A stretch of DNA of 64,000 nucleotides, taken from assembly GCF_056712565.1 (NCBI RefSeq), contig NZ_CM160072.1; one strand, written 5' to 3'. The notes beneath the pieces are model-generated. The model was given only the letters and a program-made list of their open reading frames with translations. It was not told the origin of the DNA and ran no database searches. A program made the position numbers and the translations under genes. Within the stretch, counting starts at the first letter, position 1; every line of letters starts with the position of its first letter. Of this stretch, positions 29,653 through 46,515 are shown one piece after another.

Positions 29653-30330
29653 CTATTTTCCGATAAATTCAACGCTGGCGCCGGTGGCATTACCGTCAGC
29701 ACCAACCGTGACGGTCACTTTGTCGTACGCACGGTCTTCAGGATTGAATACTTCAAACTCAACCTTATTGCCTTTTACTTCGTAAGAGCCAAAATCAGCG
29801 GTTTCTGTTGTTTCCTCGTCGTATTTCCGGGCGTATGCCTGTCGGGCAGCCTGCAGTACGGAGTCTTTATTAATAGTGGTCGTCTGTTTCGGGGAAAAAA
29901 CGGCAAGTGATGTGACAAATTTCGGACAGACCTTCAGCATATCACCGCGGGTGAATTCCATTCGTACACCAAATGCCTGTAAAACGGACACATCACGCTC
30001 TGCTATGGAGTGAACGGCTTTTTTGACCATTTCCGACGCCTGTTCGGCTTCCACCTCAACAGCCCTGAATCCCGTCTGCTGATTACACATTTGTGATGTG
30101 GGGATCAGGTTACCGTTAATACTGATACGGCTGCCCAGGAGCGTCTGTACGCCATTCGGGCATCCCTGCATCAGGCCGGTAATACCAATCGTGCCATTTT
30201 TCAGCATTACCAGCGCCTGACCATCTTCCGTCATGGTCTGGCACCAGCCGTTTTTGACAGCCCAGTTACCGGCGGAGGCGGAGAAGGATGCAACAGTGAA
30301 AAGCAGGGGAAAAAGAGTTCTGGTATTCAT
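29653..30330 (-). CDS. Putative secreted protein or lipoprotein (YfjS/YafY-like position)
   Basis: ORF track 261 aa; likely start at [22 protein letters not shown], a signal-peptide-like N-terminus. Confidence 0.4.
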
Positions 30331-30480
30331 GACTGACCTCTGAAATGAACGTACGGTGTTATTGATAATGATGGAAGGTATGCAGTGACTGTTCAGGAAA
30401 TGACGTAATAGCCATATATTTAGTTTTCTGTTCAACATATTGTCTCCATACCTGTCGGGACGGCTTTGGCAGGCCGGCGA

Positions 30481-31161
30481 TCACAGGTTAAAGGTGTTGA
30501 TAAGTTTATGGATGAAAGAGAAATGTGGCAGGGCGGAGATAAAACGCTCTTCAGCGACCAGATTGTGGATGTGGCCTCTCCGTTCAAACCGTTCTGATGT
30601 CAGGCTGACTGATTTGATATCTGCCAGGGGAAAGACCTGCAGTTTTCCCTTCTGTAACGCGATCAGATACCAGCTTCCGCTGTAATAAATGAGCCGGCAG
30701 GGCTCCAGTGACGTATACCATCGCTCAGTCATCAGCGAGATGTGGATACACTGTTTTATTGCCAGGATGAGTTGCGAGAAACACTCGGGGAACGTTGCAG
30801 TGATATCCGGCGCCGGTAGCCAGATAAGGCAGGGAGAGGGCTCCTGGTTGTCGGTAAGACAGGTTATCAGTCGTCCGTTCCGGAGCGGAAGTATCCGTGC
30901 GATCCCGGTATTCTGTATAAAAGAAAGCATTTCAGGGATCGCACACGGGCTGCTCTGTCGTCTGAGGCTGTACCTGCCATTTCTGTACTCTAAATCCAGG
31001 TGAACCAGACGCTGATGAAAATCGCGCTGTAAAGTACGTTCTGTAACGCCAAATTCATCTGACAGTGTCTTTAGTGACAGAGATTCTCCGGCCATCAGTC
31101 GGCTGATAATGAGTGATAAGCGAACCGCCAGACGATCATGCCGGGAACGATCATCAGACAT
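30481..31161 (-). CDS. WYL-domain transcriptional regulator (YfjR-like)
   Basis: 226-aa ORF, N-terminal HTH (LKTLSDEFGVTERTLQRDF) and C-terminal WYL-like region. Confidence 0.65.
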   Translation of the reverse strand: MSDDRSRHDRLAVRLSLIISRLMAGESLSLKTLSDEFGVTERTLQRDFHQRLVHLDLEYRNGRYSLRRQSSPCAIPEMLSFIQNTGIARILPLRNGRLITCLTDNQEPSPCLIWLPAPDITATFPECFSQLILAIKQCIHISLMTERWYTSLEPCRLIYYSGSWYLIALQKGKLQVFPLADIKSVSLTSERFERRGHIHNLVAEERFISALPHFSFIHKLINTFNL

Positions 31162-31363
31162 AGATGTGTACTCCGTAAGAAAACATCTTTTATTTCATGA
31201 TGTTATTATGCCTCATGGTGTTGAAAGGATGTGTCGTATCTGAATAATCAGGAATAAAATGCAGCAGAAAAAATATTCCTTTAATTATCTGATTTTTAAT
31301 GATGATTTCATAAAAAGAAGAATACTCGTTAATCCAGCGACACATCCTGTCGGCGTGAGTGTG

Positions 31364-32248
31364 TCAGAACAGACGATCCCACAGTGTTTCCAGCAGGCGG
31401 ATAATGCGGTCCCGGGCTTTACGCAGAAGCTGTAACATCCAGACCGGAAAAGTGAACCGGGCAACGGCGTCGTCAAAACTTTTCCCGATGGCGTCACCAA
31501 AAGTCTGTTGTGCGTGTTTCTGGGCCTGTTCAGAGCGGTTTTCCCCCCGGATATGTGAATAAACCGCACTGGTTGCCTGCGGTGGCAGGGCGTGGATCAT
31601 CAGCGACACAAACGCCGGAAGATTCCAGCCGACAGGCGCAGCAACGGGGAGTACCGGAAATGATGACGGGAACAGGGTTGCCACCCTGGCTGTAACAGTT
31701 GCCAGTGAGAGTTCCTGGTGACGGGATGGGCATTTTTCTGTGGCATTCCATTCTTCAGCAGGAAACACGCGATCGGCATGGCTGAGAACAAACAGAAAAC
31801 GCGAGGGATCTGCACCTTCATTCAGTAAAAACTGATGCATGGCAATATCGGCAGCATACGCACGTTCATCAGCCCGCAGGATCCAGATAATCAGATCCAG
31901 TTCCGGCAGTAACTGACGGTAAATCTCCCGGTATTCCTGATCATGCTGCGGTGTCTCACCAATGCCGGGCAGATCGACCAGCGTCATTCTGCGTTCACCA
32001 ATCTGCAGGGTGAGGCGATGAGCCTGGCGGGTGCAGCCGTTCAGGGGATGCGTGGCGCAGATACGGGACTGAAAAATGGCATTACACAGACTGCTTTTGC
32101 CGGTGCCGGATTTACCCATAATGCCAATCACGGGCTCGTAATGAATAACACCGTGGAGATGTTCAAGGATTTTCTGGCGAATTTCTTCAGGAAGAAACGT
32201 CAGATATGATTTCACTTGCGCGGAGAGGGAAGAATTGCTGAATGGCAT
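31364..32248 (-). CDS. YeeP/YfjP/YkfA-family GTPase
   Basis: 294-aa ORF with P-loop GIMGKSGTGKSSLCNAIF and DLPG switch motif. Confidence 0.8.
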   Translation of the reverse strand: MPFSNSSLSAQVKSYLTFLPEEIRQKILEHLHGVIHYEPVIGIMGKSGTGKSSLCNAIFQSRICATHPLNGCTRQAHRLTLQIGERRMTLVDLPGIGETPQHDQEYREIYRQLLPELDLIIWILRADERAYAADIAMHQFLLNEGADPSRFLFVLSHADRVFPAEEWNATEKCPSRHQELSLATVTARVATLFPSSFPVLPVAAPVGWNLPAFVSLMIHALPPQATSAVYSHIRGENRSEQAQKHAQQTFGDAIGKSFDDAVARFTFPVWMLQLLRKARDRIIRLLETLWDRLF

Positions 32249-32348
32249 ACCGGTATCCTGTTGATTTCACTGAACCGGATCACACTAATCCGGTTTATCA
32301 TTCAGGTAATATGGGTGTGAAAATTTTTCCATTGACGGGAAGAAGAGT

Positions 32349-33572
32349 ATGGCTAAAAACAAAGGTATCTGTCGGAATAAAAAATGCAGTAATCCTGTTT
32401 CAGAATTTGATGAGGCAAATGCCTTAAGGTTATGCGATGATCATTATAAGCTATGGAAGCGAAATAAAGAGAATCGTCGGGTCAGGAATATTTGTCGTAT
32501 AATTAGTAGATATGACAAAAGTCTGGACTGGGAGATATTTTATAGAGTAAGAGATGCTGCAAAAAATAAAACGGGAAAGAGAATTATTGAGGACGCAAAA
32601 ATATTACACCAATGGCGTGCTTCAAAGCAAGTAAGAAAAAGTTTTCACAAGGGTGTGCTTCGGTCACGGGAATGGCTTAATACACAGGAGTTACTGAGCA
32701 GAAAACATATATCTGTTACAGGTGAACTATTTAAATTTTACATAAAAGATATTATCAGATTATATTGCTATAAGTTTCTCTACAGCAGAGAATATCTTAA
32801 TGAAAACGCATACAAAAAACGATATCAGAGAGATATTCACCCCAGAAAAGTTAATGTTCCGATACTGCAACTTGAAGTTGCATGGATAAATAATAATTGC
32901 CGCTCAAGTGATTCAAGCACTGATATTATTATCCTTCCGAGGATGATAAGAAGAATGGTTGTATTTAATTATACGAAGATAAATAAACAATTAGAGAAAG
33001 TGTTGGGGGGGATAGCACGAAAACAAACCTCAGAAAGGAATAAAGGCGGTCTCTATACCAGAATAAAAAAAGAAAGTGACTTTCTTTCTATGGATAGATT
33101 TATGGTGGAAATAGAAAATATCATAAGACCTGAAAGGTTTCCTACATCAATTTATCCAGTCTTTTCACATTCATTTATTGAACGAGAGCTTCCGCTACTG
33201 AATCTTGCCCGATCACAGTATAAAAGAGCAATAAGTAAAAGAGTGGCGAATTCAATTTTTTATACTTTGCAAAAAACTAACGTGGCATTATGGCTATATC
33301 TTGAAATGTTTGCTCTGGTGGCATTCATTAAACTGTATACAGGAAAAGGTTTTGAATTCATAAAGAACATGTGTGTATTTATCGATTATGAGAAAGGGAT
33401 AATAAAATCCACACATGAAGAACTGCTGGGTGAAATTAAACGTAACATTCAAGTGAATTTGAAGGTGAATCCTGATAATTTTCCAGAGTTAATAGATATA
33501 TACAATTCATGCTTTAGTGAAAATATATTGTCATATGATATTCAGGATGGTAATTTTAAATGGCGCTCATGA
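32349..33572 (+). CDS. Hypothetical 407-aa basic protein with an N-terminal Cys4-type (zinc-ribbon-like) motif; AT-rich foreign gene, family not recognised
   Basis: Uninterrupted 1224-nt ORF in visibly AT-rich DNA, divergent from the GTPase gene; N-terminus CRNKKCSNPVSEF...LCDDHYKLW; Lys/Arg-rich. Confidence 0.6.
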   Translation: MAKNKGICRNKKCSNPVSEFDEANALRLCDDHYKLWKRNKENRRVRNICRIISRYDKSLDWEIFYRVRDAAKNKTGKRIIEDAKILHQWRASKQVRKSFHKGVLRSREWLNTQELLSRKHISVTGELFKFYIKDIIRLYCYKFLYSREYLNENAYKKRYQRDIHPRKVNVPILQLEVAWINNNCRSSDSSTDIIILPRMIRRMVVFNYTKINKQLEKVLGGIARKQTSERNKGGLYTRIKKESDFLSMDRFMVEIENIIRPERFPTSIYPVFSHSFIERELPLLNLARSQYKRAISKRVANSIFYTLQKTNVALWLYLEMFALVAFIKLYTGKGFEFIKNMCVFIDYEKGIIKSTHEELLGEIKRNIQVNLKVNPDNFPELIDIYNSCFSENILSYDIQDGNFKWRS

Positions 33573-35024
33573 TGTGAAAATATTAATTTCACATTACATA
33601 TTAATTATCCACAAAAAACATATAATTAATTTCAATGAGTTACATATAAAAACGTTGATGATTATCCAGCTTAGTATGGTTATGCAATGTGATGCTTAAC
33701 GCTTACAGATAATAACACATTCATATGAGCTATATATCATAATATTCAATAATCATGATATGCTAATCTGATTATGGATAAAAATTACTGAATGACGCCA
33801 TATTATGATTGGCAGTGTTTCCTGTATACGATGACTTATCTCTCCCGCATCATATGGGGGTACGTTTCTTAGGAAAAGTGACGGGGTTACAGAAGCCAAT
33901 TACGATAGTTTGTTGTAGAGTTATCACGAGTTTTTGTTGTTCTGAAGACGGAATCAGAAAAATAATTCCAGAGTAAACATGTCTGTTTTTTGACCAGTAA
34001 AGATCCATGCTGGCCGTGAAAAACTGAAATCAACACTCAGTCTGCATGGATGTCTGAAGATATTGAGAATGTCGGGAATGGTACTATATACGTATTATAC
34101 AGACATATCTTCACTAAGTGTTATACACGCATTTTCATAAACAATTCTACAAGTGTTTTCATTAAGCATTGCTGTACACATTGTTTGATCTGATACACAT
34201 CCAGTTTAGTAAATCTTTACGTTAGCTAAAATCAGTTTAAAGCTGCTACAAAACAATTTTTCTTGTTTAAGTAATCAGGATGATATTCTATTTTTCTGAA
34301 GTTACGTTTAACCTTTTCTTAGTTTTTGTGTTTTTAGTCGTTAACCTGAGACAAGTGTCTTTATGTAAAAACGCAAATCCGGCTGAGATAACCTGGCGTG
34401 ATTTACTGTGTGCTTACGATGATTTTGTTAAATGGTTTTATGGATGATTTTGTAACGATGAGATTGATGAGATGATTAACTGGCCCTGGTGTTTTTTCTC
34501 AGCGCAAGACTCTTTTCAGGAAAAGCGTGATGATTGGTTCTGGTGTTTTGATTCAGATGAGGTTTACGTTATCGATGGTTAACCGTTTTTATGGAGCGTA
34601 GTTAAAAGTAACGTTTTCAGTATAAGAAAATCGATTCTGATGTTGGTGGTTTTTGTTCTTGGGGCGGGGGTGTCTGTAAACAGGTTTTAATCGCGCTGTT
34701 CGGCTCTGTGATTGAGTTGTGTGGTTAAGCTGTAGGTGTGGTGTTGCTGTTGATTTACAGCGCCAGAAAGCGTTCTGATTGCGTTTCTGACGTTTTGTTT
34801 GCGCGTTCTGTTGATCCGTTTCCCTTCAGGCTTTGTAGTTTTTAAAAAACATTTATGCCGTTGTTGTGTGTTTTACTCTGCGTGTAGGTTTATTTTTTCT
34901 TCGTGGGGGATTCATTCTGTTTTAATCAGGAGCCATTGGCGTTGCTCAATGGCGGGATGCCGTAAAGTTTTACCGCAGTGATTAATGATGTGAAGTCAAT
35001 CCAAATCAACGGAGATCTCTCATC

Positions 35025-35756
35025 ATGAATCAACCAATACACAATGCTTACTGGTTATCCCGTTTTGAAAGTATTCTCAACAGTGCCCTGGCGCAACACC
35101 GTGCCGTCTCGTTAATCCGGGTGGATTTACGTTTCCCTGAGTATATGCCTGCCACCATCATGGATACCGATTTAGATTCAGCGGTGATTTCTCGTTTTTT
35201 TGCATCCCTGAAAGCAAAAATTCAGGCTTACCAGCGACATAAACGACGTGCCAACAAGCGTGTGCGTGCAACCACTCTGCGTTATTTCTGGTGTCGGGAG
35301 TTTGGCAAGGAAAAAGGCAGGAAACATTATCACGTGATATTACTGCTCAACAAAGATACCTGGTGCTCGCCAGGGGATTTCACCGTTCCTTCTTCGCTGG
35401 CGACGCTGATCCAACTGGCATGGTGCAGTGCTCTGCATCTCGAGCCCTGGCAGGGTAATGGACTGGTTCATTTTTCCAGGCGGACGCCTTTCCGTAAACC
35501 GACATCATCTGATGCTCGCCCTTCTTCCGATGATACGCCTTTGTCGGGTGGATGTTCTGAAACCAGGAAGGCTTCAGACAAAAAGTCTGGTGGATCCGCT
35601 GTGCTCTGGGTCAAGCGTGGTGATGTGGAAGCGATGCAGAAAGCCCGGAACAGAGCCAGTTATCTCGTGAAATATGAGACGAAGCAGCATGACGGTTCCG
35701 GGCAACGTAATTATGGTTGCAGTCGTGGGGTAGGGCGTCTACTGGATGGCAGGTGA
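35025..35756 (+). CDS. YagK/YfjJ-family protein (inovirus Gp2-like, HUH-type motif HYHVILLL)
   Basis: 243-aa ORF with RVDLRFPEY and HYHVILLL motifs; assignment from recalled family signature and island context. Confidence 0.45.
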   Translation: MNQPIHNAYWLSRFESILNSALAQHRAVSLIRVDLRFPEYMPATIMDTDLDSAVISRFFASLKAKIQAYQRHKRRANKRVRATTLRYFWCREFGKEKGRKHYHVILLLNKDTWCSPGDFTVPSSLATLIQLAWCSALHLEPWQGNGLVHFSRRTPFRKPTSSDARPSSDDTPLSGGCSETRKASDKKSGGSAVLWVKRGDVEAMQKARNRASYLVKYETKQHDGSGQRNYGCSRGVGRLLDGR

Positions 35757-36102
35757 GCCCTGTAAAACGGCATCCGGTACCAGAGTGTATGTCACGGTAA
35801 GGGCGTCAGCCAACGCCCTTAGATCGTTTTCTGCTAATAGCCCTGAAGTCATGAAACGGTATTTTTATCTGCTTCCGCTCCTGGAAACACTCCGTCGGTA
35901 AAAACTTACCGGGATGATTAATGATGTGAACCGAAGTCAACGGAGATCATTCCCCCTGAACCTGCATCCAGTGTTCTTTCCCTTATCTTCCCGTTCTGCT
36001 TCGGTTCTTCACTTATTCCATCAACTCCATCCGCAAACCATAACACGTCAGCTTATTCACGGGCAGGACGCATTGTGGGCTGCGCATAACGGAGCATATC
36101 TT

Positions 36103-36678
36103 ATGAATGCTATCCCTTATTTCGACTATAGCCTGGCCCCCTTCTGGCCATCTTATCAGAACAAAGTCGTCGGCGTCCTTGAGCGTGCGCTGCGTGAGCA
36201 GTCCGGCTCACGGATACGGCGGATCCTGCTTCGTCTGCCGTGTGAATATGACAATACCTTCAACAGCAGAACGACCTGGTTTGGTATGGATTTTATCGAA
36301 ACCGTCAGTGCGCTGATGAATGCAACCCCCGGACGTGATCTCTGCTGGCTCCTGACCCGTCATCCTGAAAAACCGGAATACCACGTGGTGCTGTGCGTCA
36401 GACAGGAGTATTTCGATGGCCCTGAATTGGACCGGTTGATACTGGATGCCTGGAGTAACGTACTGGGCTTCGCGTCACCGGGTGAAGCAAAGCAGTATCA
36501 GAAGCAGATCACCCGGGATGTGGTGCTGGACAGTCGTTCACCGGACTGTGAAAACATCCTCAAAGAGTTGATATGGGCGTTCAGTGATTTCGCCCGCGAT
36601 CGTCGTGGTGTGTGCGATCCGGAAGCCCGTTGCCTCGCCGGTAATCCCGGCTATCCCGGATCTGCAGGACCGTTCTGA
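36103..36678 (+). CDS. Second YagK/YfjJ-like paralog with degenerate HUH motif (EYHVVLCV)
   Basis: ORF track starts at 35914 but the first 63 codons are the conserved upstream motif and low-complexity sequence; Met at 36103 aligns with the paralog-1 N-terminus (RILLRLPCEY vs RVDLRFPEY). Confidence 0.4.
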   Translation: MNAIPYFDYSLAPFWPSYQNKVVGVLERALREQSGSRIRRILLRLPCEYDNTFNSRTTWFGMDFIETVSALMNATPGRDLCWLLTRHPEKPEYHVVLCVRQEYFDGPELDRLILDAWSNVLGFASPGEAKQYQKQITRDVVLDSRSPDCENILKELIWAFSDFARDRRGVCDPEARCLAGNPGYPGSAGPF

Positions 36679-36806
36679 AAGCTCGGTTCAGCATCTTTCC
36701 CTGCATTCGCACAAACTTCATAAATCTCACAAAGGACATTCTGACCATGTTGACCACAACAAGCCACGACAGCGTGTTACTGCGTGCCGACGATCCCCTG
36801 ATCGAC

Positions 36807-36980
36807 ATGAACTACATCACCAGTTTCACCGGTATGACCGATAAATGGTTTTACAAGCTGATCAGTGAAGGTCATTTCCCTAAACCCATCAAACTGGGGC
36901 GCAGCAGCCGCTGGTACAAAAGTGAAGTGGAGCAGTGGATGCAGCAGCGAATTGAGGAATCACGAGGAGCAGCAGCATGA
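36807..36980 (+). CDS. alpA: AlpA-family phage transcriptional regulator (excisionase-like HTH)
   Basis: TDKWFYKLISEGHFPKPIKLGRSSRWYKSEVEQW matches the AlpA signature; ORF track start 36747, internal Met at 36807 preferred. Confidence 0.7.
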   Translation: MNYITSFTGMTDKWFYKLISEGHFPKPIKLGRSSRWYKSEVEQWMQQRIEESRGAAA

Positions 36981-37098
36981 AACGTGTTGCAATACCAGCG
37001 CCGGCATTGCGGAAATCAGCCCTGTCCCCGATGCTGGCGACACTCCCGCTCATCTTTCTGCTGACTCCTCTGGTCTGCCAACTGTTTGTCATCATTTC

Positions 37099-37266
37099 CT
37101 GACTGATTCGTCATTCCCTTCGTCCCGCCAGTCACTGGTGTTTGTATCGTACCGTCCGGTGTTGATGTGCGTTTTCCGTGTGTCTGCACCGGCTTAACAA
37201 AATTCAACAGGGTTTGAAAAGGAACATTTCGTGCAAATAACCGAAGCCTTAATTTCAGAGCCGGGA
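37099..37266. repeat. Copy 1 of a ~150-170 bp repeat (inverted relative to copy 2 at 44502-44651) with a conserved 7-1-7 palindrome
   Basis: Manual alignment to the reverse complement of 44502-44651: blocks ccggctctgaaa, gcttcggttatttgca, tccttttcaaacc, cgccagtNactggcg, gaatgacga shared; roughly 75 percent identity. Confidence 0.6.
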
Positions 37267-37279
37267 GACATCCGGCGTT

Positions 37280-37636
37280 TTGTTCAGCAGGCGCTGGAGT
37301 TCTTTAATCTGCTTCATGGCAGCAGCAAGTTCAGAGGCAGGAACGACCTGTTCTCCTGCGGCCACAGCAGTAAGACTTCCCTCCTGGTATTGCTTGCGCC
37401 AGAGAAATAACTGGCTGGCTGCCACACCGTGTTGCCGGGCAACAAGGGAGACCGTCATTCCCGGTTCAAAGCTCTGCTGAACAATAGCGATCTTTTCCTG
37501 TGTAGTACGCCGTCTGCGTTTCTCCGGTCCTAAGACATCAATCATCTGTTCTCCAATGACTGGTCTAAAAACTAGTATTAAGACTATCACTTAAATAAGT
37601 GATATTGGTTGTCTGGAGATTCTGGGGGCTAGTCTA
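37280..37636 (-). mobile_element. insC: IS2 remnant (left inverted repeat plus 5' part of insC); rest of the element missing
   Basis: Terminal ggttgtctggagattctgggggctagtcta matches the IS2 IRL; minus-strand [56 protein letters not shown]... equals IS2 InsC until homology ends near 37280. Confidence 0.75.
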
Positions 37637-38793
37637 GTTTTAAAGCGCCCCCTGCCGTATCAGAACTGGGGAATGCTACAGGGTTTGACCTGTTCCTCGA
37701 GGATCGTAGCGGAGCTAGCCATGAAAAAATGATCCAGGCCCGAAATCAGCTTCTTGCTGAAGCGGCGAAAAGTCCAGCGTTAAACATGGTTCGTCCTAAC
37801 GGCATGAACGATGAGCCTCAGTTCCAGATTCTGATTGATGACGAGAAAGTTCAGGCGTTTAAACTGAGCATGAGCGACGTCGACAACATAATGTCAGCAG
37901 CCTGGGGTTCGATGTATGTAAATGATTTTAACGATCGTGGACGGGTGAAAAAAGTCTATATTCAGGGCGAACCCGGCTCACGTATATCACCGCAGGATTT
38001 TGATAAATGGTATGTCCGTAACAGTGATGGCGACATGGTTTCCTTTGCCTCTTTTGCAACAGGCAAATGGATTTATGGCTCACCAAAACTGGAGCAATAT
38101 AATGGTATCTCTGCTGTCGAAATCCTGGGGGAACCGGCACCAGGATACAGTTCCGGGGATGCAATGAAAGCAATTGAGGATATTGCGGCAAGACTTCCCG
38201 AAGGTTTCCATATTTCCTGGACAGGTTTGTCTTTTGAGGAACGACTTTCAGGTTCTCAGGCTCCTGCACTATATGCACTTTCACTGTTGATCGTCTTTCT
38301 GTGTCTGGCTGCACTGTATGAAAGCTGGAGCATTCCTTTCTCGGTCATGCTGGTTGTTCCGCTTGGTGTCCTGGGGGCTGTCTGTGCTACTTTGTTGCGC
38401 GGCCTTGGTAACGATGTCTTTTTCCAGGTCGGTTTATTAACAACAATAGGGCTGTCTGCGAAAAATGCCATACTTATCGTGGAGTTTGCTCGTGAATTGC
38501 ATGAGAAAGAAGGACTAAGCATTAAAGAGGCTGCTGTTGAAGCGGCGAGAGTGAGGTTAAGACCGATAATTATGACTTCGCTGGCATTTGTAATGGGGGT
38601 TATCCCACTGGCTGTCTCGACTGGAGCAAGTTCCGGAAGTAAACATGCCATCGGTACTGGTGTGGTTGGAGGGATGATCACTGCTACGATACTGGCAATC
38701 TTTTATATTCCTCTCTTCTATATGTTAATTGCCGGGTTCTTCAGCCGCAGAAATAAGAAATCATCGGATAAGACTGAAGCTGAGCAATCATAA
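37637..38793 (+). pseudogene. RND multidrug efflux pump (AcrB/AcrF-like), C-terminal ~350 residues only; 5' part removed at the IS2 junction
   Basis: [28 protein letters not shown]...[25 protein letters not shown]... aligns with AcrB residues ~690-1049; no N-terminal two thirds. Confidence 0.8.
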
Positions 38794-38892
38794 GCATGAG
38801 TAAATATTCAGGTGCAGTAAACAACATACTGCGCCTGAGTAAATGGCTGTTGGGTTGGTACTAAATGCCCCAGAGATATTTCCTGAAATAAG

Positions 38893-39493
38893 ATGTCAAT
38901 GGAGATTTCAACAGTGGTGCGGCACACAAAATTTGCAGCGGAAGAAACCCGCAAACAAATCCTGGATGTGGCAGAGTTCTGCTTTTGTGAGACGGGCTTT
39001 TCGAAGACGACACTGGAGATGATTGCGGCGCGCGCAGGTTGTACTCGGGGGGCCATATACTGGTATTTCAACGAAAAAAAAGATCTTCTGCGACAAGTCA
39101 TCGAGCGGGTACCACTATCATTATTTGATGAGCTTACAGCCATCAAAAATGGGAGAGTTTTTGAACCGGTTAAAGCGATGTATCGTTGCTTATCACGTAG
39201 CCTGATTAAATTACAATATAATGTACACTTACGGAATGTAATTTATATTGTGTTTTTTTTGTGAAGAATGTCCGGATGATATAAGAATAAATTTCTTACA
39301 AAAAATGGTGGATGTCAATAATTTTGTGAAATTACTATGTTATATTTTCGAAAAAGGTAAGTTATATAGAGAAATATGTTTGGAAATTCGTAGTGAGACT
39401 CTGGCGTTCCTGCTTTTTTCTTTGTTTACGGGGGGGGGCGAAGTTGCATTCTGCAACCTGATAATAAATCCCTTTTCAGAGAGGGTTGCATAG
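38893..39493 (+). pseudogene. TetR-family regulator (AcrR/EnvR-like), apparently frameshifted
   Basis: N-terminal TetR HTH (TTLEMIAARAGCTRGAIYWYFNEKKDLL) in the 38893-39264 ORF; remainder continues in another frame (39248-39493); T8 run at 39253-39260. Confidence 0.55.
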
Positions 39494-39535
39494 TACTGGA
39501 GTTGACCCAATCAACCTTCACAGGCATCGATAAAA

Positions 39536-39881
39536 ATGAACGCTACTATAAAAAACAGCTCTGATATCAATGAGTTTGCTAAATGGATTGATGAAAATCT
39601 TGAGGTAGAACTCTCAATAAATATTGAGGCAAAAAAAGCTGGATATTCAAAATGGTATTTACAGAGATTGTTTAAACATATCATTGGTATTTCTATTGGT
39701 AGGTATATTAATAAATGCAGCAGAAGAACTACGTTCTACTACTGAATCGGTCACGACTATCACTTTTAAATATCAGTTTGATTTTCAGCAGACATTTACA
39801 AGGGCATTTACTCGCCGCTTTGGTATAGCTCCTATTGCATACCGAAAACTCGCTAAGGAAGAAGTGAGATGGAATAGTTAG
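39536..39881 (+). pseudogene. MarA/SoxS-like small AraC-family regulator, split across two frames
   Basis: INEFAKWIDENLEVELSINIEAKKAGYSKWYLQRLFKHIIG in one frame, FDFQQTFTRAFTRRFGIAPIAYRK in the next; together they resemble MarA. Confidence 0.5.
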
Positions 39882-40237
39882 TTATGTAAGCGTTATTTAC
39901 TTAAGCGTGGATATATAAGAATGATATTATCAATATGTTGCTCATGAGTTTTTAATAGCATATAGGCTTGTTAACATAGCCCAGCAATATACTTTGCAGT
40001 GGGAGCAGGTATGCATACAGAACAGTGGGCGAGGACGAGCGTCCCTTTTCGAACAAGGTAGCAAAAGAGGAAGAAGAAAGACAAATACAACTGGGCCTGA
40101 AAGGGTAGTGTTTAAGCCCCCTTTCAGGGGGCCGTGTCAAAGCCGCCCGCTATGCAGATGGTTTTTTACTTTATCTGTTAAGCAAAAAAATGCCGCGATA
40201 AAGAAATTGTTACCGCGGCAGCGTCATAGCAATTTAC

Positions 40238-44713: not shown

Positions 44714-46515
44714 GTAGGAGGCGGGATCACTCCCGCCGTCCTCTCACACCACCGTACATGCGGCTCCGCATACGGCGGTTCATGTTAACACTGGAACTGC
44801 CTCTGCTGTTCCAGCAGTGATATCAGACCCTGCCTGCTGAACCACGCATTCTTTATCGCCTGATTCATATGGCTTGACTCTGAGTTCCACCATGGCCCGT
44901 GGTTGTTGTACGCTGAGATCATCGCCCTGTCCTTACTCAGTCCTGCTCTTTGCAGGTTCTTTGCCCGGGTTAGCGGTCTCTTCCACTGCCGCTACAACAA
45001 GCAACGCAGTTTCCGTTTGATCCAGCCATCCAGCTCCTCCAGCACTCCTCTGACCTCCGTCAGCCTGAAGTAGCTTATCCATCCACACAGCACTGGTGTC
45101 AGAGCATTGATTGTCGCTTTCACTGATTTGCTCCGGTTTCCCGTCGTCAGACTGTGGACTTTCTCCTTCAGCCTGTTCACGCTCGTCAGGGCTATCTTCA
45201 GCTTCGCCTGTTTGTGCCATGTCACACTGTACCCGAGGAACTTCCGATCCCACGGGCGCGCCACCGCGCTCTTCTTCTCATTCACCTTCAGTTTGTTCTC
45301 CACGAACGCCCTGATGTTCTTCAGCAGATGGTCGCCCGCTTTCCGGCTGCTTACGTAGATGTTGCAGTCGTCTGCGTAGCGGCAGAAGCTGTGTCCACGA
45401 CGCTCCAGTTCTTTATCCAGTTCATCCAGCAGGATGTTCGACAGTAACGGCGACAGTGGGCCGCCCTGCAGCATGCCCGCCTGCCGTTTCTCCCTTTGCC
45501 CGTCTTTAACCATTTCCGCTTTCAGGTAGCGGCGTATCAGTCACAGCACCCGCCTGTCCTTTATCGTTCTGGCCAGACGCGTCATCAGGAGTCTGTGATC
45601 CACCCGGTCGAAGAACTTCTCCAGATCCATATCCACCACCCACCGTTTGCCACCCCGTATGTAACGCTGTGCCTGTTGCACCGCCTGCTGGATAAGCCTG
45701 TCCACCACCGTCGGGATGCCTGAGGTTCTCACGCCGCCATCCGGCTTCGGGATATCCATCCGGCGTATTGTCCGCGGCTGGTAGTTTCCGTCAATCAATG
45801 CCTGCCTGACGCTGCGCCAGTTCTTCTTCAGCCACGGTTTCAACTCCGCCACGCTGAGGTTATCCACCCCCGCCGTGCCTTTGTTTTCCACCACGCGCTG
45901 ATAAGCCAGCATCAGGTTTTCTCTCGTTATCACCGCTTCCATCGTCAGCGGCACTTCCGCTTTCGTTTGCCCACCCGCCGCCGTGCTGATTTCAGCGCCA
46001 TCATGCAGCCCTGACGGATACTGTCCGTCTCCTCTGCCGCTGGTCGCAGTGGCCTGCGCTTGTGCTTCATTAATCATCATCGGGTTCGGATGTCCTAATC
46101 ACAGTTAATCATGTTCGGCCCTTCATGCTGCCGGTTTTGCAGCACTACTACGGCGTCGGCTGACTTCTGCCGCCCCATCCCGGCGCCTCACGGCGCCGGT
46201 AGCACACTGGCAGGGCGACAGATCTCCCGGGGTAATTCACGCGACTTTCCTGCTTATGCCTGTCGGCTTTACGTCACAGCGTTCCGTGTGAGTATCGGGC
46301 TTTGGTGATTAGTGCCACCTTACCCTGCTGCGCCGCCTTAACCGCTTCCTGTTCGTCAGGCCAGCATTTTGCATCCAGCTTCCTTCAGATTTCACCTCGC
46401 GATGAACACCCTTGCCTTCCGCTAACACTTCCCCTCACCGGGTGTGTGGAGGACTTTCACCTCTTAGTCGTTCTTCTGCCACCACAGTTGAAGAACAGCG
46501 CCAGTCACGGCGCAC
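44714..46515 (-). mobile_element. Group II intron (bacterial class C-like: inserted just downstream of an intrinsic terminator)
   Basis: Minus-strand 5' end GTGCG at 46511-46515, six nt after the terminator U-tract; domain V-like hairpin (GAACCGCCGTATGCGGAGCCGCATGTACGG) and domain VI-like hairpin near 44715-44780; RT ORF inside; 3' boundary approximate. Confidence 0.7.
44992..45942 (-). pseudogene. Intron-encoded reverse transcriptase/maturase interrupted by in-frame stop codons
   Basis: RT motifs (GVDNLSV, QGGPLSPLLSNILLDELD, FCRYADDCNIYV) and X-domain (CGWISYFRL); in-frame TGA at 45541-45543 and TAG at 44992-44994 after which the frame still reads RQWKRPLTRAKNLQ. Confidence 0.7.

Follow-up and report, generated by a model that had tools for sequence, protein, structure and literature searches.

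What occupies the 1,452 nucleotides (nt) that lie, almost never annotated, between a cargo gene and a nickase-fold gene on islands of Escherichia coli? The copy considered here is the interval 33573-35024 of the window, by which we mean the whole 64,000-nt stretch of contig NZ_CM160072.1 (NCBI RefSeq assembly GCF_056712565.1) that was analyzed. The DNA is of E. coli phylogroup-B2 type, and the interval sits on an integrative island of the CP4/P4 class, on which a gene for a 407-amino-acid (aa) protein, the interval, a YagK/YfjJ-family gene, a 191-aa gene, an AlpA-family gene and insertion sequence (IS) debris follow one another rightward. A sequence-only reading had described the interval as poor in coding sequence, and this description holds: no open reading frame (ORF) of at least 60 aa exists on either strand in 33700-34798, the nearest ORFs of that length being a 60-aa one that stops at 33699 and another that begins at 34799. 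That reading proposed a decayed gene, a structured non-coding RNA or a site related to replication or transfer, and it missed both the composite make-up of the interval and a promoter-like module, composed of two short conserved sequences (Box 1 and Box 2), which is shared with yagK and yfjJ of E. coli K-12. Our favored reading, to which we give a probability of about 45%, is that Box 2 is a yagK-type promoter and that the G+T-rich tract beyond it is a long untranslated leader or spacer, the composition of which would evade Rho, with a terminal hairpin adding translational control.

The composite make-up is seen when islands with different cargo are compared. Each cargo cassette brings its own trailer and the homology class upstream of Box 1 differs with the cargo; homology among such islands then restarts exactly at AGAAAATAATTCCAGAGT (33962-33974), which is Box 1. 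Partial megablast matches to the interval in complete E. coli genomes end at query positions 384, 551 and 936, and query positions 1-936 recur alongside the 407-aa gene independently of the downstream part. Box 1 precedes, on the same strand, YagK-family genes whose proteins are of 36-100% identity, and its carriers include E. coli, Providencia, Brenneria, contigs from Logan/ENA and IMG/VR, and K-12 yagK and yfjJ. Relatives of the YagK-like protein were followed in Providencia, Brenneria and these two contig collections to 36-43% identity, which is all that the YagK proteins of the eight box-bearing lineages share with the window protein. Over these eight lineages Box 2 conserves the pattern GTnnG(n5-6)TAnTATA at 52-96 nt beyond Box 1, with seven positions still invariant once K-12 is added. 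The K-12 genes yagK and yfjJ read TAATTGCAGAGTAA and TAATTTAAGAGTAAA at Box 1 and GTTGGATAGGTATTATATAAT and CTTGATAGGTAATATATAG at Box 2, and every YagK-family member examined, the K-12 genes included, is preceded by both boxes. When the E. coli alignment was searched with nhmmer, the other lineages gave nothing beyond the short boxes. With Box 1, a gap and Box 2 as the pattern, a metagenome scan yielded 120 matches, all due to chance and 0 of them beside a YagK-like gene, and a scan of a genome collection with the YagK-like protein gave two close loci and no more. Box 1 is probably the recognition site of a regulator or of the nickase. Two other identities were considered for it and dropped, namely a tRNA-derived attachment (att) remnant, as the box is identical in islands of different genera and sites, and a leftward -10 element, as its C variants lack the critical A.

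The second and last positions of a bacterial -10 element are the critical -11A and -7T. Both are invariant in the -10-like hexamer TAnTAT of Box 2 across the eight lineages and K-12. A TGn precedes this hexamer in the window, in the other E. coli homologs read and in three other lineages; it is missing from K-12 yagK and yfjJ (AGG), Providencia, Brenneria and lineage L030. The window also has a -35-like TTGAGA 16 nt from TATATA, which is unconserved in other genera and scores mediocre in scans. In K-12 the yagK-yagL spacer is reported to be a constitutive target of RpoD holoenzyme in genomic SELEX (systematic evolution of ligands by exponential enrichment), with the promoter TTTAGA-16-TATAAT and H-NS binding (Shimada et al., PMC3946193), and binding of RcdA to the same spacer has been reported (PMC3535384). 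The reported K-12 hexamer TATAAT falls inside Box 2, and the equivalent in the window is TTGAGA-16-TATATA. We infer that Box 2 acts as an extended -10 promoter of the sigma-70 type, which would correspond to the one reported for the K-12 spacer. The Cappable-seq supplement for MG1655 does not mention yagK or yfjJ, and that for EDL933 has starts just for another Gp2 type, one linked to YfjI (a TATAAT that overlaps the annotated ATG precedes the start by 7 nt), these starts being uninformative for the present locus type. The ancestral layout is a divergent pair, with GTPase, DUF932 and antirestriction genes leftward and YagK-AlpA rightward, and the non-coding gap between the divergent sets measures about 450-1,360 nt in the loci that have this layout.

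What lies between Box 2 and the gene is far less constant. From Box 2 to the annotated ATG there are about 60 nt in yfjJ, 180 nt in yagK, 245-325 nt in lineages L039 and L025 and in Providencia, about 810 nt in L035 and about 940 nt in the window. Since this distance is shorter in K-12 and other lineages, the G+T-rich tract is an expansion specific to the present E. coli clade, which includes L019 with its 70%-identical protein. Slippage is evident in the homologs, with TGATGG in 10.8 copies, a 17-nt unit in 2.7 copies and, in CFT073, the 12-nt unit TATTTTACTAAG in 5.7 copies at the position of the degenerate repeats of the window. The copy number of the repeats downstream of Box 2 varies among the aligned E. 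coli homologs (alignment A1), and locus L009 has an extra G+T-rich insertion that begins GGTTGTTTGTGG. We also observed a TGATGG/GGTGAT hexanucleotide microsatellite of about 11 copies within the tract of L008 (6745-6807) and of L009 (window ~34650).

The skew of the tract is real and far above chance. The sequence-only reading had noted an AT-rich first part followed by a G+T-rich plus strand with short repeated motifs, and all of this was borne out. The first part (33573-34299) has a G+C content of 32% and an unbiased G+T fraction of 0.51, whereas G+T rises to 0.65 in 34300-35024 (G+C 40%), with an onset at about 34300, and reaches 0.68 in 34400-34920 (A 19%, C 13%, G 27%, T 41%). Across the 64 kb, 400-nt windows average 0.505 G+T with a standard deviation of 0.038, and the maximum of 0.69, about 4.9 standard deviations up, lies in the tract, where GC skew also peaks (+0.41) and AT skew has its minimum (-0.41). 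Several motifs exceed what composition predicts, with GTTTT in 14 copies (4 expected), GTGTTTT in 4 (0.4 expected) and GATGATT in 4 (0.12 expected), and TGGTGTT occurs three times (34487, 34541 and 34739). The skew is also seen in homologs at 70-90% identity, although as homologous copies these are not independent replicates. A G-run at 34662, GGGGCGGGGG, resembles part of a P2/P4 cohesive-end (cos) site, but this candidate was dropped as the run is unconserved in a second E. coli clade.

How the tract evolves can be read from its substitutions. Mean pairwise divergence is 13.8% in the tract and 13.9% over the whole region, against 8.8% at the 4-fold sites of the adjacent gene, and the sequence of the tract is therefore weakly constrained, with the exception of a few more constrained islands (alignment columns 761-800, 961-1080 and 1241-1320). 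Its composition may be another matter. When substitutions were polarized by parsimony on 16 sequences, the rate per site was 0.471 for AC->GT and 0.307 for GT->AC (p=0.001); the rate of A>G is above that of T>C (p=0.001), and that of C>T above that of G>A (p=0.09). The G+T fraction implied at equilibrium is 0.61 in the tract, 0.50 in the upstream part and 0.53 at the third codon positions of the gene. Because the tract is asymmetric while both of these controls are symmetric, the skew is kept up in part by a process that acts in the tract alone. A plain mutational bias coupled to transcription or replication is insufficient, given that the co-oriented gene lacks the asymmetry; the causes that remain are selection on composition or motif density, or a single-strandedness specific to untranslated DNA. 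It may thus be the composition of the tract, rather than its sequence, that is maintained.

The favored reading brings these observations together as follows. The segment 33573-33955 would be the trailer of the cargo cassette and 33962-34090 the ancestral control module of YagK/YfjJ genes, from which transcription would run rightward over about 34093-35024 and yield an untranslated leader of ~930 nt. The distance between Box 2 and the start codon would have been expanded in the E. coli clade, apparently by slippage of short G+T-rich repeats. A leader poor in C and rich in G would escape Rho-dependent termination, and the complementary antisense RNA, being C-rich and unstructured, would be a good Rho substrate. 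The C/G ratio of the tract is 0.48 in plus-strand RNA and 2.09 in minus-strand RNA, and the C+A-rich minus strand is almost unstructured, at a minimum free energy of about -4 to -9 kcal/mol per 100 nt; on composition alone, this is the pattern expected of a Rho-resistant leader with an antisense Rho utilization (rut) site. At the end of the leader a hairpin would occlude the ribosome-binding site and the start codon. Divergence falls to just 2-5% in the last ~80 nt before the gene, and RNAalifold predicts a hairpin here (-18.2 kcal/mol, 24 pairs) in which the GGAG ribosome-binding site and the AUG are paired. It has 0 compensatory changes, covariation being absent because nothing varies there.

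Several observations weigh against this reading. A position-weight scan puts the Box 2 site mid-table, a consensus promoter scan omits Box 2 altogether, and the -35 at Box 2 is weak. C-poor leaders occur just in E. coli and Providencia and not in Brenneria, L025, L035 or L039, and Rho evasion is therefore not a general property of these loci. In L004 (7033-8185), L020 and many ST167-like genomes, most of the tract is replaced by unrelated DNA (with an opposite-strand 176-aa hypothetical gene and with just the last ~175 nt of the interval kept), which means that the tract is dispensable or that a proximal promoter exists. Finally, the counts of substitutions are not large and skewed sequence makes parsimony imperfect, and the third positions of the co-transcribed gene lack the asymmetry, which speaks against a simple mutational cause coupled to transcription but is no proof of selection.

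Two rival explanations survive better than the others, and we regard both as doubtful. In the first, the conserved module and the direct repeats form a cis-acting origin of the HUH nickase, either a double-strand origin or one resembling an origin of transfer (oriT). One of the two boxes would serve as the invariant sequence that is nicked or recognized, the repeats would be iterons for the origin-binding face of the protein, and the tract would lie beside the origin, its skew deriving from repeated exposure of the plus strand as a single strand (with deamination of C to T and of A to G) or from additional low-affinity binding sites. YagK/YfjJ proteins have the HUH nickase fold, nicking itself being putative; the window protein has the motifs HYHVILLLN and YLVKY, and the HUH and catalytic Tyr (YLxK) motifs are conserved family-wide and across genera, so that an initiator-like gene is indeed adjacent. 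Box 1, at 12-14 nt, is kept at 36-43% protein identity, which exceeds the usual need of a promoter element. Just past Box 2, three lineages have unrelated repeats with iteron-like periods, namely 22-23-nt units in three copies in L035, 11/37-nt units containing TATGTGTTT in Providencia and 12/24-nt periods in E. coli. On the plus strand C>T and A>G changes are in excess, which is the signature of single-strand deamination, and in some islands a gene for YfjI, a P4 alpha-like primase, lies beside the nickase gene.

Against an origin, the boxes fall in no consistent hairpin across the eight lineages (folding with DNA parameters), and single-strand folding is unremarkable. L025 and Brenneria have no direct repeats after Box 2, and those of the window are degenerate and left blank by Tandem Repeats Finder. 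Nor does the interval look like a theta origin of the iteron/DnaA type, as it has a single perfect DnaA-box 9-mer (TTATCCACA, 33605-33613, 33 nt past the cargo stop codon, one of 7 TTWTNCACA sites in the whole 64-kb window), no integration host factor (IHF) site and no GATC cluster (4 GATC against ~5.7 expected at equal base frequencies). The skew begins about 330 nt from Box 1 and ends at the gene start, the third positions of the gene are symmetric, and Box 2 is independently explained as a promoter. It should be noted that the promoter and origin readings can coexist; in geminivirus origins, promoter and origin overlap. The earlier proposal of a replication or transfer site may still hold, as the HUH-fold gene and the lineage-specific repeats by a conserved box are there, whereas a nick-site hairpin and other hallmarks of origins were not found. 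Less probable again is the more specific proposal that boxes and repeats provide the nick sequence and iterons with which YagK/YfjJ nickases replicate or mobilize the excised island. If this were true, the tract would be the footprint, mutational or functional, of a repeatedly displaced strand, such as a priming or R-loop zone, and the locus would represent a new class of chromosomal rolling-circle origin and give a function to two K-12 y-genes.

The second of these rivals is that the tract is functionless, a spacer grown between promoter and gene by slippage of short G+T-rich units, with a skew that all homologs would simply have inherited, and this too we think unlikely on balance. It accords with a tract that outpaces 4-fold sites in divergence, is full of indels, shows micro- and minisatellite expansions in homologs, is replaced in many islands and has no homology found outside the clade. 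The raw counts also agree, with 100 GT->AC changes against 73 AC->GT (binomial p=0.048), a net flux slightly off G+T. However, the rates per site are asymmetric toward G+T when both flanking controls are symmetric, and the observed C/T ratio of the tract, 0.32, is the same as the T>C rate divided by the C>T rate. In addition, Providencia has an independent C-poor (7%), G+T-rich (0.61-0.69) region with GTGTTT repeats in the same place.

The two remaining explanations fare much worse, as the interval is genuine non-coding DNA. A decayed protein-coding gene is very improbable. Of all frames, the one most like a protein is a read-through ORF of 100 aa (34280-34582) that is intact in a few genomes, and RefSeq occasionally annotates hypothetical proteins of 44-82 aa on the interval, mostly on the minus strand. 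Nevertheless, that frame has 17 near-identical relatives among 5.8 billion clusters, the source-named ones being E. coli, and one entire clade of homologs has a 4-nt indel within it. An exhaustive HMMER search with the six frames of 34400-34951 against 1.84 billion representative proteins gave 21 matches of 37-168 aa at 54-94% identity, spread over all six frames, which represent ORFs wrongly called on this very DNA and not a protein family. Six-frame translation of the interval gave 0 Pfam family matches, no ORF is common to all of 12 aligned E. coli homologs (79% mean identity), and indels among the homologs are mostly not multiples of three, with sizes of 1, 4, 8 and 17 nt common. Scarcely any weight can be given, likewise, to a structured non-coding RNA (a riboswitch, a small RNA or an immunity RNA of the P4 CI type), despite the long conserved non-coding DNA beside P4-type regulatory genes and the predicted folding of the last ~55 nt: a search of 30000-40000 against Rfam 15 at E<=1 gave two weak matches, both outside the interval and far under the gathering score, RNAalifold in 120-column windows on both strands gave a structure conservation index mostly below 0.5 and z near 0 in all but the last window, with no structural conservation or covariation found across the tract, and single-sequence folding energies mostly resemble those of shuffled sequence (the lowest z, each in a single 100-nt window, being -2.8 on the plus strand in the cargo trailer and -4.0 on the minus strand at 34700-34799).

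The features of the locus are collected below.

Table 1. Features in and around the interval, with positions in the window.
Feature	Position	Strand	Remarks
YfjP-like GTPase gene	31364-32248		Leftward set
Cargo gene, 407 aa, low GC	32349-33572	+	One of at least 4 alternative cassettes in the slot
AT-rich 3' trailer of the cargo cassette	33573-33955	+	Travels with the 407-aa gene (query positions 1-383)
Box 1, ATAATTCCAGAGT (consensus GATAAYTCCAGAGT)	33962-33974	+	Left border of the block invariably found with the yagK-like gene
Box 2 and promoter-like core	34063-34090	+	TTGAGA 34063-34068; GTCGGGAATGGTACTATA 34071-34088; extended -10-like TGnTACTAT 34079-34087
Degenerate direct repeats (TAyrTrTTATACAsrCAT, AAGTGTTTT)	34089-34180	+	Remnant of a variable-copy array; repeat families D7, D11
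G+T-rich, C-poor tract	34300-34950	+	Short repeated motifs, E. coli-clade specific, fast-evolving
Translation-initiation module, nearly invariant	34955-35032	+	Palindrome 34959-34976; predicted hairpin 34979-35032
YagK/YfjJ-family ('inovirus Gp2 family') gene, HUH nickase-fold protein	35025-35756	+	243 aa
Second copy of the 56-nt initiation-region element	35898-35948	+	blastn self-match, 75% over 56 nt, E=1.5e-4
191-aa degenerate paralog of the YagK-like protein	36103-36678	+	hhalign against the family alignment: probability 89%, E=2e-6
AlpA-family regulator gene	36747-36980	+	PF05930, 2e-10

Between the GTPase gene and Box 1, the slot at 32249-33955 is a cargo hotspot that holds unrelated cassettes across E. 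coli islands, encoding proteins of 407 aa, of 376 aa, of 316 and 262 aa, or of 320 aa together with a 284-aa RepB-family protein. Pfam and PADLOC were blank for all of these types, PHROGs was blank for the 407-aa protein as well, and no defense-system annotation of the cargo genes was found. A terminator scan places a terminator-like hairpin in the trailer at 33842-33860. Sequences similar to the boxes occur elsewhere in the slot. A Box 1-like GATAATTTTCCAGAGTTAATAGATATATAC (33470-33500) lies within the 3' end of the 407-aa gene and is confined to that cassette class, where it may be due to chance or be a trace of cassette capture. A Box 2-like GGTAATATGGG (32300-32320) lies between the GTPase and cargo genes, 35-40 nt before the cargo ATG, and is possibly the promoter of the cassette.

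On the other side of the interval, the AlpA-family gene is the usual downstream partner of the YagK-like gene and the YagK-AlpA order recurs in distant lineages. The 243-aa protein has a low-complexity insertion of ~45 residues (residues 153-188 region) between its HUH and Tyr motifs, with a predicted local distance difference test score (pLDDT) below 50, which its relatives of 189-207 aa are without. Its 191-aa paralog reads EYHV where the YagK-like protein has HYH, and has the copy of the initiation-region element upstream. As an in-frame CTG at 35956 follows the copied GGAG by 10 nt, the true start of this gene may lie upstream of its annotated ATG.

Parts of the interval are present in 1,876 of 5,426 complete E. 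coli genomes (megablast), in a median of 2 and a maximum of 8 places per genome, and identity is 100% across 33573-35024 in S88, APEC O1, ATCC 11775 and many ST95-like genomes. A phage or plasmid origin was considered and rejected, as there were 0 matches in 50,697 phage records, with one IMG/VR contig matched, and just 4 E. coli plasmids carry the interval. In S88 the interval sits on an island adjoining cadC, where an integrase fragment abuts cadC; ARAGORN detected 0 tRNA genes in the 64 kb despite the cadC/pheU-side location of the island. The leftward set comprises genes for the YfjP-like GTPase, a WYL/helix-turn-helix (HTH) regulator, DUF905, DUF932, antirestriction, RadC/JAB, DUF987, YeeU/CbtA and DUF4942 proteins. 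At the start of the WYL regulator gene (30437-30480) there is a weak Rfam match to the a1/b1 targets of the P1/P7 C4 antisense RNA (18.6 bits, E=0.58, far under the gathering score). In the grp (propanediol utilization) cluster of S88, two neighboring ORFs with reverse-transcriptase domains are annotated (L001 23420-24508, about window 44990-46080).

About one E. coli genome in three, and other Enterobacterales too, have CP4/P4-type islands with YagK/YfjJ nickase genes, and these islands include the backbones of pheU, pheV and selC pathogenicity islands, yet YagK and YfjJ remain uncharacterized proteins of the 'y-ome'. The module of Box 1 and Box 2 together with the HUH-fold protein is the more useful product of this analysis, the tract itself being of modest interest; the two boxes are oligonucleotide-sized targets for binding, nicking and promoter assays. 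For annotation, this recurrent unannotated block of ~1 kb should not be labeled a pseudogene, and the small hypothetical ORFs at times placed there are spurious. The tract is possibly DNA of which the composition is kept though the sequence is not and, if the leader reading is true, it would show how a horizontally acquired operon deals with Rho when its untranslated leader is very long.

Several known systems resemble this locus in part. The left arm of the island (DUF932, antirestriction, RadC, YeeU/CbtA) resembles the gene sets of the leading regions of conjugative plasmids, which have Frpo/single-strand initiation (ssi) promoters, but the long stable hairpins of such promoters were not found on either strand of the tract. 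Transcription of the leading genes of the F plasmid runs in the direction of oriT. The idea of an oriT for which the left arm would be the leading region was rejected because the genes have the wrong orientation for it, and an oriT at this place would serve neither of the flanking gene sets. The long leaders of acquired operons silenced by Rho and H-NS are similar in that a long, untranslated and H-NS-prone leader is predicted here, with the C/G ratios of sense and antisense given above; unlike in those leaders, an ops/JUMPStart element was not found, and the link to Rho comes from composition only. The HUH rolling-circle origins of geminiviruses and other circular Rep-encoding single-stranded (CRESS) DNA viruses, of pMV158 and of parvoviruses (NS1 and the adeno-associated virus (AAV) Rep) share with the window a nickase-fold gene beside a non-coding region, a short sequence invariant throughout the family and lineage-specific direct repeats, with possible promoter overlap. 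They differ from it in that the candidate site of the window has no conserved stem-loop, its repeats are degenerate and are missing in some lineages, and the element is chromosomal and integrase-borne with a putative origin role. A further likeness is with yagK and yfjJ on the cryptic prophages CP4-6 and CP4-57 of K-12, which have both boxes in the same order and orientation upstream of the YagK/YfjJ gene. The stretch from Box 2 to the start is much shorter there and is not G+T-rich, and blastn of these loci against the 1.45-kb interval is blank. To this shared arrangement the window adds a cargo slot ahead of Box 1 and, after Box 2, skewed sequence of about 930 nt that is specific to its clade.

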